Assembly: GCA_016292035.1 (NCBI GenBank)
Contig: JAEEZR010000026.1
Location: forward strand, 16,655-80,654
Direction: 5' to 3'
DNA: 64,000 nucleotides
Origin: Bacillales bacterium
GTDB taxonomy: Bacteria; Bacillota_I; Bacilli_A; RF39; UBA660
The notes beneath the pieces are model-generated. The model saw only the letters and a program-made list of their open reading frames with translations. It made no database searches and was not told where the DNA came from. Positions 44,170 to 53,132 of the stretch are shown piece after piece (positions within the stretch are counted from its first letter, which is position 1; the number at the start of each line of letters is the position of its first letter). The translations under genes and the position numbers were made by a program.

Positions 44170-46221
44170 TTATGAACTACAAGTCTCAATTTTTAATGTG
44201 TTATTCTTAATCTTAAACATAATACTACCATCTTGATCTGTTCTATATATTTTAGAATTTTCTAGATTATTTAATACTTCTTTATTTGGATGACCATACT
44301 TGTTATTCTTTCCAACACTAATAACAGAATAATTAGGTTTTATTTTATCTATAAACTCAATACTTGAACTTGTCCTACTACCATGATGTCCTACTTTTAA
44401 TATATCTATATCTAGTAGATTATATTTACTCATTATTTCTTTTTCAGTAGTAACTCCAGCATCTCCCATAAACATAAATTTATAACCATCAAGTTCTGTA
44501 TAAATAACATTTGAGTTATCATTTTCATTATCATATTCTTTTGTCTGCAAGAAATAAAGTTTGTTATTATCTATATTTAGTTCTTTAATACATGAATAAT
44601 AATTAATCTTCTTTTTATTCAAAACTTTTATTAATTCTTGTTCTAAATCATTATAAGCTCCACAATTAAAGATTACTTTTTCTACCTTGTAGTTTTCGAC
44701 TAAATTAATGGCTTCTCCCATATGATCATAATCACCATGGCTAATTACCAAAAATCTAATAGAACTAATGCCATTCTTTCTTAAAAAAGGAATAGTTTTA
44801 TTAATAGCTATATTAGAATAATTGCTATTTATATTGCCACCAGTATCTATAAGAACAGCTCCCTTACCAGCTGGATACGAAATCAATATACTGTCTCCTT
44901 GAGATACGTCTAAATAAAAAACTTTATAAGAATAATCAAAATAAGGATACATCTTTAAACATAAAGCTAAACCAAATAAAAGAATAAGTAAGTATTTATT
45001 TCTATGCATAGCCAAATAAAGAATCACTAGATACAAAAGAATAAACCATGACGAAAAATGAGGATAATAAACTATTAAATTGCAAAGTGAAAATAACTTA
45101 TTAATTGATAGCAAAACATAAATAACTTTATCATAAATAAATAAAAGGAAAGGAAATAAAAAAGTAAGAAGACTAAGAGGAAAAACAATTAAACTAACAT
45201 AAGGCACCAAAAATATATTAAATATGATTGAAAGCAAGTTAACCTGTCCAAAATAATAAGCAGATAATAAAAAAGTAGTTGCAAATGAAAGAAATGAAAC
45301 AAATATAATGCTTTTAAAATAGCTAGAAGTTCTTTTAGTAAATCTAATTAGAAAGAAAACACTTATGAAAGAAAGTAAAAAAGCACTGTCAAAAAGACCA
45401 TAAGGAAAAATAAATAATGTAATAGAAAAACAGATAAGAAGCATATTGATATTACTTGTTTTTATATCAAAAAGTTCAAATAAAAAAGCTAATATAAAGA
45501 AAAGAACAGCTCTAAATAGAGAAATACTAGATGCATTAATTAAATAAAACATTAGTAAAATAATTGATACTATAAAATATCTTATAGTTTTACGAACATG
45601 AATCTTTCTTAGAAAAAAGAGTAAAAAGGCACTAAAGAAACTAACATGCATGCCAGAAAGAGCTAGCAAATGTGAAACACCATTATCTCTAAATAAATCT
45701 AAATCATCTTTAATCATTTTATTATTACCAAGTATGAAGGCATACATATATGGGTTATTTATTAAACTTGCTCTCTTATATAAATAGTTTTTTAATCTAT
45801 AAAAAAGACTATTACTTCTATTAATAGCAGTAATACTATTAATCTTAATACTAAAGTATACCATTCGAAGTGCTAAATACCTTTTATAATTAAATGCATT
45901 AAAAAAAGTATTAGAGCTTATTTTATCAATATCACCATTGATCTCAATATTGCTGCCATAACTTATATTTTTTTTAAGAAAATCATAATCATCTTTAAAA
46001 TAATAATAGGAGATAACCTTAAATGGGCAAGAAAGCTCCATAGTAAGCCTATCTCCATCAAAATTGTAACTATTTACCTTACAACTATAAGTATTTGACT
46101 TTATAATACTAGCGCTATAATTAAGCCTATAATTTGTTATAACTAATGAATAAATAACAGAAAATAAAATAATTAATATAATAAAAAGCTTAGACTGTAA
46201 TACTGTCTTTAATAGCTTCAT
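44170..46221 (-). CDS. comEC: DNA internalization competence protein ComEC/Rec2
   Basis: Polytopic competence domain plus C-terminal metallo-beta-lactamase domain (DVSQGDSILI, ISHGDYDHMGE, GHHGS, YGHPNKEVL). Confidence 0.9.
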   Translation of the reverse strand: MKLLKTVLQSKLFIILIILFSVIYSLVITNYRLNYSASIIKSNTYSCKVNSYNFDGDRLTMELSCPFKVISYYYFKDDYDFLKKNISYGSNIEINGDIDKISSNTFFNAFNYKRYLALRMVYFSIKINSITAINRSNSLFYRLKNYLYKRASLINNPYMYAFILGNNKMIKDDLDLFRDNGVSHLLALSGMHVSFFSAFLLFFLRKIHVRKTIRYFIVSIILLMFYLINASSISLFRAVLFFILAFLFELFDIKTSNINMLLICFSITLFIFPYGLFDSAFLLSFISVFFLIRFTKRTSSYFKSIIFVSFLSFATTFLLSAYYFGQVNLLSIIFNIFLVPYVSLIVFPLSLLTFLFPFLLFIYDKVIYVLLSINKLFSLCNLIVYYPHFSSWFILLYLVILYLAMHRNKYLLILLFGLALCLKMYPYFDYSYKVFYLDVSQGDSILISYPAGKGAVLIDTGGNINSNYSNIAINKTIPFLRKNGISSIRFLVISHGDYDHMGEAINLVENYKVEKVIFNCGAYNDLEQELIKVLNKKKINYYSCIKELNIDNNKLYFLQTKEYDNENDNSNVIYTELDGYKFMFMGDAGVTTEKEIMSKYNLLDIDILKVGHHGSRTSSSIEFIDKIKPNYSVISVGKNNKYGHPNKEVLNNLENSKIYRTDQDGSIMFKIKNNTLKIETCSS

Positions 46222-46909
46222 AAAGTTTTTCGCCTATGCCTTCGACGTTCATAATATCTTCTTTCCTCTTAAAAGGTCCATTATTCTCTCTATAATCAAT
46301 AATTTTTAGAGCTTTACTCTCACCTATTCCTTCTAAAGTAGATATTTGTTCTTTAGAAGCAGTATTAATATTCACAAATTTGTTCAAATTACTAGTGTCA
46401 TTAGAAATTGATGTTGTATTGCCAGTTATTTCGTCATTATCTAATGAAGCAATGTTATATAAAGAGCATACTCCATTATTAACTCTTTTATAATTGTCTT
46501 CACAAACAATAGGTATATCGTTCATAAGATAAAACTCTACTTCCTCTTTAGTATTAACTATAATAACGTTTTCATCAAATATTCTTTTAGCTAAATTAAG
46601 ATTAAGAACATATGCATTTTCAGATAATCCTCCAGCCTTATGTATAGCATCAATTACCCTATCTGATTCACTCATTTCGTATACTCCAGGAACTTTAACA
46701 GCGCCTTTAACATCTACTTTAATAGAAGCATCAGCTTTCTTATTAGAAGAAACTACTTCGATAGTCTTATCAGCGCTTTTAACAGATGAAGAGCTAAACT
46801 TTCTATTAATTAAAATAAAAGTAGTAAAAAGAGCCACTAATAAAAAAATAGACGCCATAGCAATAATTTGTTTCTTATATACAGAATAATAGTACATTAT
46901 CTTTTTCAT
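46190..46909 (-). CDS. comEA: competence DNA receptor ComEA
   Basis: N-terminal TM helix, SLBB-like VKGAVKVPGVYEM, C-terminal HhH pair (INTASKEQISTLEGIGESKALKII ... VEGIGEKLYEAI). Confidence 0.85.
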   Translation of the reverse strand: MKKIMYYYSVYKKQIIAMASIFLLVALFTTFILINRKFSSSSVKSADKTIEVVSSNKKADASIKVDVKGAVKVPGVYEMSESDRVIDAIHKAGGLSENAYVLNLNLAKRIFDENVIIVNTKEEVEFYLMNDIPIVCEDNYKRVNNGVCSLYNIASLDNDEITGNTTSISNDTSNLNKFVNINTASKEQISTLEGIGESKALKIIDYRENNGPFKRKEDIMNVEGIGEKLYEAIKDSITV

Positions 46910-50051: not shown

Positions 50052-50510
50052 CTAATTACAAGAACATGTAACGTTAGATCCGCTAGCAGTACAAGTTAGA
50101 GTTTTATTATCAGGTTCTCCAACTTCTTCTCTAGTAATGTTAAGTTTAGGATTACTATTGGCAACATAGCAGAAGTTTCCATCAGAAACACCGATTTGAG
50201 CTACGTTTCCTTCACCGTTAATGCTAACAAAGTATTTAACATTAGTAGACCCAACATCTAATTGTCCGCAAGAACTTATTCCAGTTGGACAAGTGCTAGC
50301 AAAAGTACTAGTTGCAGATCCAGATAAAGAACTAGAAATATATTGAGTATTAGCAGTTCTCCAAACAGTTTGTACTTGAGTAATGAATGCATCTTTTCTA
50401 CCATTTTGGAACATATTTAATACGTTTGGCATAATTAGAAGCATTAATATAGCTAAAATAGCGATTACTGCAAGTAACTCAACTAAAGTAAAACCTTTTT
50501 TGCTTTCCAT
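50052..50510 (-). CDS. type IV pilin / ComGC-like major pseudopilin (152 aa, 6 Cys)
   Basis: Start is the ATG at 50510 (RBS GGAGGAATAAAAGTT). MESKKGFTLVELLAVIAILAIL is a prepilin cleavage-methylation motif. Confidence 0.75.
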   Translation of the reverse strand: MESKKGFTLVELLAVIAILAILMLLIMPNVLNMFQNGRKDAFITQVQTVWRTANTQYISSSLSGSATSTFASTCPTGISSCGQLDVGSTNVKYFVSINGEGNVAQIGVSDGNFCYVANSNPKLNITREEVGEPDNKTLTCTASGSNVTCSCN

Positions 50511-50583
50511 AACTTTTATTCCTCCTTCTATCATATTACAAAGTTATTATAACAAAATTCTAACAAACTAGTCAATAAATATT

Positions 50584-50808
50584 TTAGTTTTCTTTAGATG
50601 TTTCAAAAAAAGCTTTTATGATATTAGCGCTAAACTGCATACGTTCTACTTTATCACTAAAAGAAAGAGAATATCTTTTTTTCATTTGCTTTACATAATC
50701 ATCAAAATTTCCTCTCCTATTAAAGTACTTTATATAATAACTATTCTCTCTAAGAAACCTAAGAAGATTCTTATCATTATATATTTTAATTCTAGTCTCA
50801 TATTTCAT
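50584..50808 (-). CDS. small protein, YlbE-like (by pattern and neighbourhood)
   Basis: 74 aa with LLRFLRENSYYIKYFNR...KVERM. Follows a YlbD-like gene. Weak by-eye call. Confidence 0.35.
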   Translation of the reverse strand: MKYETRIKIYNDKNLLRFLRENSYYIKYFNRRGNFDDYVKQMKKRYSLSFSDKVERMQFSANIIKAFFETSKEN

Positions 50809-51149
50809 TACTCATCAAACAGCCTTTCAATGCCATCATTGTTTCCACGCTTAAAAATGTCTTTCTTAGCTTCTTTATTAGTAACAATTTCTTCTAAGAA
50901 ACCAAGAGCTTTTTCTATATTAGAAACATTTTGATCAAGCTTATCCATATCTATCTTTTTTAAATAATCAACTACTTTTCTAGCTGAAAAACCAAAGCTA
51001 CTAACTAAGTTATCCCATACTTCACTACTCTCTCCATATATGTCATAAGTTTCATATAGCTTTTGATATGTACTTTTCCCATCAATAACTATTTTTGCAA
51101 TATCTTTCCTTTTTCTAAGGAATTCTTTAAAAGCCTCTCTTTTATCCAA
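50808..51149 (-). CDS. small protein, YlbD-like
   Basis: AFKEFLRK...STYQKLYETYDIYGESSEVW resembles the YlbD pattern FKEFV...WQ..YE.W.L.GE...W. A probable TTG start at 51149 follows AGGGGTGAT. Confidence 0.35.
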   Translation of the reverse strand: MDKREAFKEFLRKRKDIAKIVIDGKSTYQKLYETYDIYGESSEVWDNLVSSFGFSARKVVDYLKKIDMDKLDQNVSNIEKALGFLEEIVTNKEAKKDIFKRGNNDGIERLFDE

Positions 51150-51175
51150 ATGAATCACCCCTAATAATATATGTA

Positions 51176-51853
51176 TCAAATATTCATATTTTTACTTTCT
51201 TCATAAAAACTATAAAAAGAGTTACTTGAAATAATAATATGATCAACCATTTTAATGCCAATAATTTTACTTGCTTCGTATAATCTATTAGTAATATCTA
51301 TATCAATGCTAGAAGGCGTAACATCGCCACTTGGATGATTATGCATAACAACAAAGAAACTAGCACTTTCACTAATAGCATATTTAAATATTTCTCTAGG
51401 ATGAACATTAACGCTATCAACAGTACCAACAAACATTTTTTTCTTAGAAATATAATTCATTTTAGTATCAAATAAAATACAGTAAAAGTTTTCCTGTTTT
51501 TCATATAAAAAGTCATATTTAAAATAGTTATATATATCTACTGCATTAGAAAGTTTAATCTTTTCGTCAGTTTTATTAATTCTTCTAGAAATTTCAAATG
51601 CAGCTAAAAGCGACGAAGCTTTACTTTTCTTAATTCCTTTTTCTTTAATCAAAGAGTTATATGAACACATAGATAATTTGCCAATAGAGCCATATTTCTT
51701 AAGCAGATTATTAGATATTTCATTAACGCTATTATCTTTATCTCCTACTCTTAAAATAATAGAGAGTAATTCGCTATCGCTTAAGTAGCCAGGACCATTA
51801 TTAATAAGCTTTTCTCTAGGCTTTTCTTCATTTATTAAGTCTTTTAATTTCAT
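51176..51853 (-). CDS. radC: RadC-like JAB domain protein
   Basis: PREKL N-terminus, HhH region, HNHPSGD JAMM motif. Start is the ATG at 51853 (RBS GGAGGAAAAT). Confidence 0.85.
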   Translation of the reverse strand: MKLKDLINEEKPREKLINNGPGYLSDSELLSIILRVGDKDNSVNEISNNLLKKYGSIGKLSMCSYNSLIKEKGIKKSKASSLLAAFEISRRINKTDEKIKLSNAVDIYNYFKYDFLYEKQENFYCILFDTKMNYISKKKMFVGTVDSVNVHPREIFKYAISESASFFVVMHNHPSGDVTPSSIDIDITNRLYEASKIIGIKMVDHIIISSNSFYSFYEESKNMNI

Positions 51854-51928
51854 ATTTTCCTCCAAAACAAAAAGTAGCCCCTTAAGGCTACAGTTATTTA
51901 TTCCTAATAAAAATATACTAAACACTAG

Positions 51929-52414: not shown

Positions 52415-52440
52415 CGAAAAAAGCACCCTAAATGGGTGCT
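52415..52440 (-). terminator. rho-independent terminator after rpmF
   Basis: AGCACCC / GGGTGCT stem followed by a T-run on the minus strand. Confidence 0.65.
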
Positions 52441-52446
52441 AAATAA

Positions 52447-52650
52447 TTAATTTTCTTCTTTTTTAATTACTTCTTTACCTTTGTATTGTCCGCATTTACT
52501 GCAAGCTCTATGAGGAGCAATAGCTGCGCCACAATTTTTGCAAGTTACTGTAGTAGGAGCATCTTTCTTAAGATGAGTTCTTCTAGCTCTTTTAGCAGTT
52601 TTACTAGTTCTTCTTGCAGGTACTGCAAATAATTGTAAATCAAATTTCAT
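52447..52650 (-). CDS. rpmF: 50S ribosomal protein L32 (zinc-ribbon form) with 9-residue N-terminal extension
   Basis: [18 protein letters not shown] and CKNCG...CSKCG motifs. ATG at 52650 overlaps the yceD stop (ATGA). GGAGGG RBS. No alternative start lies next to AVPARR. Confidence 0.9.
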
Positions 52651-53132
52651 TCTTTTCCCTCCATATCTAATAAGTTACTAAGTTCACTAAATGGTGAATT
52701 CTCTTGACTCTTATATTCGTCAACTAAGTTCCATCCGTCTCCCTCAGTAATAAAGGAAGCATCTTCCTTAATAACTCGAAGTGGAACCTCTAGTACAATA
52801 TTTTCCCATACAATGCTCCTTAAGTCAAGCATATTTTGAGTAATTAAAGGTAAATCTTCACTAGTTTCTTCAGAAATATTTTCAGATATAGTAATGTTTA
52901 AAGGGTAATCAACTTCCTCTAGGCTTCTAGCACAAAGAAGCACCATGTTACCTTTAATGTTTAAGTCTAATTTATAAGTAGTTTCCTCTATTCTTTCTAT
53001 CTTTCCAGAAGCATGAATGTTTTCTAGTCTTACTATATCAGTATCTTTAACATCATCACTTGAAAAACTAAAATCTTCATCAATATTTAAAGAACTTACT
53101 TGAGAAGATTTAAGAGCACTAATATCAAACAT
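52647..53132 (-). CDS. yceD: YceD/DUF177 family protein
   Basis: Acidic ~160-aa protein directly upstream of rpmF (conserved pairing) with a CARSLEEV pattern. Confidence 0.7.

Follow-up and report, generated by a model that had tools for sequence, protein, structure and literature searches.

A putative Prp-cleavable propeptide on ribosomal protein bL32 in a lineage of uncultured low-GC gut Bacilli

The window analysed here is the whole stretch of 64,000 nucleotides from a Bacillales bacterium. Its rpmF gene (52447..52650, minus strand) specifies a 67 amino acid precursor of ribosomal protein bL32 with an intact CxxC...CxxC zinc ribbon (open reading frame; PF01783, E=2.3e-21). Immediately upstream on the same strand lies yceD (DUF177/YlbN; 52647..53132, minus strand; PF02620 YceD, E=2.1e-14), whose TGA stop codon (52649..52647) overlaps the rpmF start as ATGA, indicating that translation of rpmF is coupled to that of yceD. 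A Shine-Dalgarno sequence, GGAGGG (52657..52662, minus strand), is located 6 nt 5' of the rpmF ATG, and the yceD-rpmF unit is closed by an intrinsic terminator-like hairpin (AGCACCC-ATTTA-GGGTGCT and a T-run; 52416..52440, minus strand) with a 7-pair stem containing five G-C pairs. No Rfam family reached its gathering score in window positions 1-64000; there were, by this measure, no tRNAs, riboswitches or ribosomal-protein leaders. Elsewhere in the window, genes for three proteins with prepilin N-terminal methylation motifs, together with ComEA-like and ComEC genes (564-2090, 50052-50534, 57029-57901 and 44170-46909), look like the scattered components of a competence pseudopilus and DNA-uptake machinery.

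The original prediction placed the sole plausible start of rpmF at the ATG at 52650, with a GGAGGG ribosome-binding site (52662..52657) and an ATGA overlap with the yceD stop. Both signals are present in the sequence, and the choice of start is borne out, since an in-frame stop codon is found at 52677, nine codons 5' of this ATG, and no ATG, GTG or TTG occurs between that stop and the ATG, nor between the ATG and the alanine codon at which canonical L32 would begin. Eight codons (52627..52650, minus strand) thus specify a putative propeptide, MKFDLQLF, occupying positions P8 to P1, with a predicted Prp cut after Phe8. The following GCA codon (52624..52626, minus strand) encodes Ala9, the P1' residue and the predicted mature N-terminus (AVPARR...). 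Nine extra residues had been claimed; the number is eight, and the range 52624-52650 takes in the Ala codon.

The boundary of the extension is set by the Pfam model, by solved ribosome structures and by relatives. The Ribosomal_L32p model (PF01783) matches with 76.1 bits against a curated cut-off of 21.3, and its positions 1-56 align with residues 9-64, so that residues 1-8 fall outside the L32 family model. All 33 distinct L32 sequences from solved structures likewise align from query residue 9 (chain residues 1-5), Ala9 corresponding to Ala2 in the Firmicute bL32 chains (S. aureus, B. subtilis, Listeria, Enterococcus). The protein belongs to the bL32 family: it has its cysteines at CKNC and CSKC, and it matches S. 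aureus and B. subtilis bL32 with E about 1e-14. In a collection look-up its exact sequence was found elsewhere on one 1.4-kb metagenome contig only.

Maturation of pre-L27 by Prp occurs in Firmicutes, Fusobacteria, Synergistetes, some Tenericutes and Thermotogae. In the prototype, S. aureus L27 begins MLKLNLQFF↓ASKK (here and below the arrow marks the junction with the mature protein), and Prp, a cysteine protease of MEROPS family C108, is encoded between rplU and rpmA. The published cleavage motif is xx(D/N)(L/I)Q(F/L)F followed by A or S (PMC9405229). The 11-mer KLNLQFF↓ASKK suffices for cleavage by S. aureus Prp, with residues P1-P7 held in defined subsites and with Gln at P3 and Asn at P5 forming intrapeptide hydrogen bonds (PMC9261936); substrates in which the P3 Gln was changed to Ala or Glu were not cleaved by this enzyme (PMC9261936, there as unpublished data). 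The window leader, read from P7 to P1', is K-F-D-L-Q-L-F↓A, which conforms to the published motif. Accepted L27 leaders contain every one of these residues at the corresponding position (compared with PMC9405229): B. subtilis has Asp at P5, streptococci have Leu at P2 and Fusobacterium has Phe at P6 (PMC9405229). The proposed likeness of the extension to the Firmicute L27 propeptide therefore holds position by position.

The specificity of this motif was investigated in two ways. A relaxed form, [LFIM][DNE][ILV][QT][LMFIY]F[AGS], was used to scan 1.22 Mb of clade DNA in six frames for open reading frames of at least 50 amino acids. It gave 68 matches: 67 at the N-termini of L32 or L27, and a single chance match internal to a reading frame of the window; the likeness of the leaders is thus more than would be expected by chance. 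The IMG/VR collection was then scanned with the DNA sequence that most often encodes L[DN]IQLF↓A, giving 40 matches on low-GC viral contigs, nearly all of them within about 12 residues of the protein start. PHROGs assignments of the tagged viral proteins were to head scaffolding (phrog_172, phrog_2303), major head (phrog_544) and tail-tube-like (phrog_45) families. The tag therefore moves between unrelated proteins, since it is carried by phage head proteins here as it is in phage 80alpha. The tagged viral loci are L240-L279 (for example L240 2314-2334, L268 8167-8187 and L250 748-768), and we found no mention of the tail-tube-like protein (phrog_45) as a class of Prp substrate.

The extension recurs widely among L32 orthologues, a comparison which the original prediction had suggested. 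Among 5.8 billion protein clusters, a search identified 190 relatives, and the best 120 (63-99% identity) were examined; about 108 of these 120 carry the leader and nine begin M↓AVP. The leaders take the forms MK[LF][DNE]LQ[LM]F↓AVP, M[LM]KL[DN]IQ[LM]F↓AVP and MKL[DN]I[TQ]LF↓GALP. At the level of genomes, a scan of one genome per GTDB species gave at least 587 relatives, and among the best 80 loci, which were examined, the leader is encoded in at least 54 and absent from about 25. The hosts of the leader are metagenome-assembled genomes of uncultured animal- and human-gut bacteria with 22-35% GC, labelled Bacilli, Tenericutes or Mycoplasmatota, among them Clostridium sp. CAG:524 and Candidatus Fimihabitans intestinipullorum (Mycoplasmatota incertae sedis at NCBI). 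In a library of 1.84 billion representatives, about 11 leaders were present among the best 150 of 3,044 L32 matches, all of this sequence type. Beyond these 150, other phyla that possess Prp may also have leaders on their L32.

The consensus of the leader in relatives is K-L-[D/N]-[I/L]-Q-[L/M]-F↓A. Over 52 species the individual positions are occupied as follows: P7, K39; P6, L50/F2; P5, D30/N20/E2; P4, I46/L6; P3, Q46/T5/C1; P2, L33/M9/R4/T3/I2/E1; P1, F52; and P1', A45/G7. In the same 52 species the conserved residues are spelt with several synonymous codons (TTA/TTG/CTA/CTT, TTT/TTC, GAT/GAC, AAA/AAG), which indicates that selection acts on the leader peptide. A Shine-Dalgarno-like site is found a few nucleotides 5' of the leader ATG in all leader-bearing species except that of locus L007, and the AVP codons are never preceded by such a site in these species. 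Leaderless relatives have the same Shine-Dalgarno and upstream context directly 5' of ATG-GCA-GTT (read M↓AVPFRR), so the leader looks like an insertion of 21-30 nt just after the ATG.

Several further observations were made on the L32 loci. Unusual residues occur at P2 in leaders ending ..IQRF (L007, L016, L022, L027), ..IQTF (L032, L034, L061) and ..LQEF (L039), and at P3 or P1' in those ending ..ICLF (L011) and ..ITLF↓G (L004, L006, L008-L010). Several of these L32 proteins share the core AVPFRRTSKTKKRMRRTHLKK with leaderless species, which suggests that the tag has recently been gained, has decayed or has been lost, or perhaps that Prp specificity is co-evolving. In the most abundant species with a leader-bearing L32 (P0151; 693 collection blocks; L228-L233, for example GCA_900769155.1 CAAGFM010000069.1), rpmF has no yceD before it and sits between a divergent Hydrolase_3 gene and a gene for inorganic pyrophosphatase; the leader is thus independent of coupling to yceD. 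Eleven L32 contigs (L014, L016, L018, L024, L034, L038, L041, L043, L049, L053 and L071) belong to assemblies titled Muribaculaceae, Phocaeicola vulgatus, Paratractidigestivibacter or Ignavibacteriales; ten have 26-30% GC and L071 has 42%, and they are likely to be mislabelled or to come from contaminated bins.

We then looked for the protease and for its known substrate. Searches with B. subtilis, S. aureus and clade queries found no rplU, prp or rpmA in the 64-kb window, and none within 10 kb of L32 in 80 related genomes. A scan of metagenomes with an AT-rich-codon pattern for the L27 N-terminal core led to contigs of 22-29% GC, several of them from metagenome assemblies whose WGS prefixes (JAEEG*) are sister to that holding the exact L32 of the window. 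These low-GC contigs carry rplU, a gene for a GH...DIVCA protein of roughly 100 amino acids, and rpmA. Their L27 starts M..M.LNIQLF↓A[SH]KKG and is distinguished by a GRDSAGRRLGAK signature, and a profile built from it retrieved 120 L27 clusters, 119 of which have a leader of 9-11 residues. In these 119 clusters the leader positions are P6 L116, P5 N115, P4 I111, P3 Q118, P2 L119, P1 F119 and P1' A119. A Peptidase_Prp (PF04327) gene lies between rplU and rpmA in every low-GC locus read. Both checks named in the original prediction, for a prp gene and for the same type of leader on L27, thus come out positively at the level of the lineage, the L27 leader ending LNIQLF↓A.

In a single genome, a relative of that in the window, the three genes can be placed together. 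The 512,117-bp contig CAMIXH010000001.1 (ERZ12289772 NODE_1) carries a leader-bearing L32, prp and a leader-bearing L27 about 15 kb apart. Its L32 (L006) reads MKLNITLF↓GALPFRRVSK, with Thr at P3 and Gly at P1', whereas its L27 (P0499, L206), encoded behind radC-rplU-prp, reads MIKMNLNIQLF↓ASKKG, with Gln at P3 and Ala at P1'. The Prp of this contig matches S. aureus Prp (4PEO/7KLD) with E=1e-7 and retains GHA...DIVCA, with its His, Asp and Cys. No shared contig was found for the most abundant L32 (P0151) and L27 (P0511), the L27 clusters P0478, P0549 and P0519 had no assembly match to the listed L32 genomes, and the L27 loci from the metagenome scan contained no L32 genes. A synthetic L27 N-terminal profile matched mostly fragmentary Clostridia-type L27; its candidates P0254, P0208 and P0252 were rejected as not of this lineage, their contigs having 36-50% GC.

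The L27 loci also provided some incidental observations. The 820-bp ENA contig of P0436 encodes a 148 amino acid L27 match scoring 246 bits, roughly one third above normal, and this L27 is probably tandem or fused through an assembly artefact. In the CAMIXH01 contig (L206 1546-3285), radC stands directly 5' of rplU-prp-rpmA, an order that resembles the radC...rplU neighbourhood of B. subtilis; in the window, radC (51176-51925) comes after rpmF and a SPOR-domain gene. The two ribosomal loci have been rearranged relative to each other in the lineage. Cys-rich and CotZ-like spore-coat genes adjoin rpmA in several "Mycoplasmatota-like" low-GC genomes (L089 5311-5748; L160 932-1393; 3' of rpmA in L218 and L225), SpoIVFB-like M50 peptidase genes are found 5' of rplU, and the window contains a YlbD_coat gene (50808-51179). 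These genes hint that the organisms may sporulate or keep remnants of sporulation genes.

Based upon the match between the leader and the tag that Prp removes from L27, we propose that this protease probably has L32 as a second ribosomal substrate, one not described before; both the cleavage itself and Prp as the enzyme responsible are inferred. To the complete explanation, in which a pre-bL32 propeptide is cut by Prp after Phe8 to expose a mature AVPARR end, we would assign a probability of about 70%. According to this scheme, rpmF would be translated from the ATG at 52650, in coupling with yceD, as a precursor bL32 whose 8-residue propeptide, MKFDLQLF, would be a copy of the recognition tag of Firmicute pre-L27. 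Prp, the gene for which would lie between rplU and rpmA in another part of the genome, would most likely bind residues P7-P1 and cut after Phe8, freeing a bL32 that begins AVPARR, the same end that leaderless orthologues would reach by removal of Met. During assembly bL32 enters the pre-50S particle together with uL22, and uL2 can dock only once bL32 is in place (PMC11723945). It may be speculated that, until Prp acts, the basic tail at the N-terminus of bL32 is kept off 23S rRNA by the leader. Such a removable hydrophobic cap could, again speculatively, delay or order the entry of bL32 and so place a second 50S step under the same protease.

One alternative is that the leader is a lineage-specific extension which is kept on mature bL32 as an extra hydrophobic segment, its likeness to the L27 leader being due to shared origin or convergence. 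At its N-terminus, the L32 of T. thermophilus and of D. radiodurans retains 3-4 additional residues (these chains align from residue 4-5), so that a short extension need not be incompatible with the ribosome, and leaders with Thr or Cys at P3, or with Arg, Thr or Glu at P2, look like poor sites by the rules of S. aureus Prp (PMC9261936). Against this, the conserved positions are exactly those that fill Prp subsites P7-P1, together with a small P1' residue, the motif is found elsewhere only on L27 and phage head proteins, which are the classes known to be processed by Prp, and the canonical N-terminus AVP.RR follows the motif unaltered. About a third of the close relatives, moreover, are leaderless and yet have an almost identical core, a pattern more in keeping with a removable tag than with a structural element. 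We consider retention of the leader unlikely.

Equally improbable in our estimation is that the leader is removed by some other protease, either an Rrp-like Ntn hydrolase or a dedicated enzyme. There is a precedent in S. pneumoniae TIGR4, in which an alternate protease, Rrp, processes pre-L27 (bioRxiv 10.64898/2026.08.10.744006), and the P3 Thr and P1' Gly of the CAMIXH01 L32, which differ from the Gln and Ala of the L27 site in the same genome, speak against the Prp reading to some extent. However, neither the window nor the 80 related loci have a protease gene linked to rpmF, while Prp adjoins rpmA in every lineage locus read and the L32 leader fits the Prp motif position by position. An artefactual extension, through a wrong start, a frameshift or an assembly error, was considered because the gene is short and its source uncultured, but no point was found in its favour and it is effectively excluded by the lack of an alternative start, the in-frame stop nine codons 5', the strong Shine-Dalgarno sequence at the right distance and the recurrence of the arrangement in over 50 independent assemblies, in which the codons give evidence that the peptide is under selection.

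Cleavage of pre-bL32 by Prp, the reading that we prefer, would be new in one respect: what is new is a ribosomal carrier, bL32, in a large uncultured lineage, the Prp-tag system itself being already known. The original prediction took the L32 propeptide to be undescribed, and this seems to be so, as a full-text literature search turned up no account of an L32 leader or of L32 being cleaved by Prp; a passing mention in Wall et al. 2015/2017 or in the cited PhD thesis is possible. Whether Prp has substrates beyond L27 and phage head proteins was called an open question by the discovering group in a 2025 preprint (PMC12324487), and a second tagged ribosomal protein in dozens of species makes that question directly testable.

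We incline, by a small margin only, to a broader interpretation, that Prp is a multi-substrate maturation protease which has to act on both bL27 and bL32 in a large and abundant uncultured lineage of low-GC gut Bacilli, and that the leader is a portable "process-me-before-assembly" tag which has been gained and lost repeatedly and which phages borrow for their head proteins. It is bL27 that reaches the peptidyl-transferase centre, and if this interpretation is true the function of the leader is specific neither to L27 nor to that centre. The tag on L32 weakens explanations of the leader that are tied to the position of L27 there and favours a general role in ordering assembly, perhaps as a general device that times, or controls the quality of, the entry of tail-bearing proteins into large assemblies. 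It also bears on Prp as a narrow-spectrum antibiotic target, since inhibition would affect two ribosomal proteins in these common gut commensals.

Among known systems the closest is the pre-L27/Prp pair. Both involve an N-terminal propeptide (8-11 residues) of the form [K]-L-[D/N]-[L/I]-Q-[F/L]-F followed by Ala, with the canonical mature end directly after it, and the Prp of the lineage, known here from relatives, keeps its His and Cys. From P7 to P1' the window L32 reads K-F-D-L-Q-L-F↓A, S. aureus L27 K-L-N-L-Q-F-F↓A and the L27 of the lineage x-L-N-I-Q-L-F↓A. The differences are that the carrier is bL32 rather than bL27, that cleavage here is predicted, that some L32 variants have Thr at P3 or Gly at P1', and that the L32 tag is limited to a subset of low-GC uncultured gut Bacilli/"Mycoplasmatota", being gained or lost among close relatives. 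The list of Prp substrates in a 2022 review comprises L27, the phage 80alpha proteins and, as a proposal, FlhB only (PMC9405229). In phage 80alpha, the capsid (gp47) and scaffolding (gp46) proteins are cleaved by host Prp and, like L32, are unrelated to L27 but have taken up the same N-terminal tag; they are viral structural proteins, whereas the carrier here is a second ribosomal protein of the host. FlhB (PMC9405229) resembles L32 in being an additional Prp substrate inferred bioinformatically from an L27-like N-terminal motif, but it is a flagellar export protein, whereas L32 is on the ribosome and its leader shows wide, position-specific conservation. Finally, the bL32 of Thermus and Deinococcus (MAKHP-VPKKK...) also has extra residues before the conserved [AV]P.[RK][RK] start; unlike the leader described here, these 3-4 residues are polar, lack an LQ.F motif and are seen in structures of the mature ribosome.
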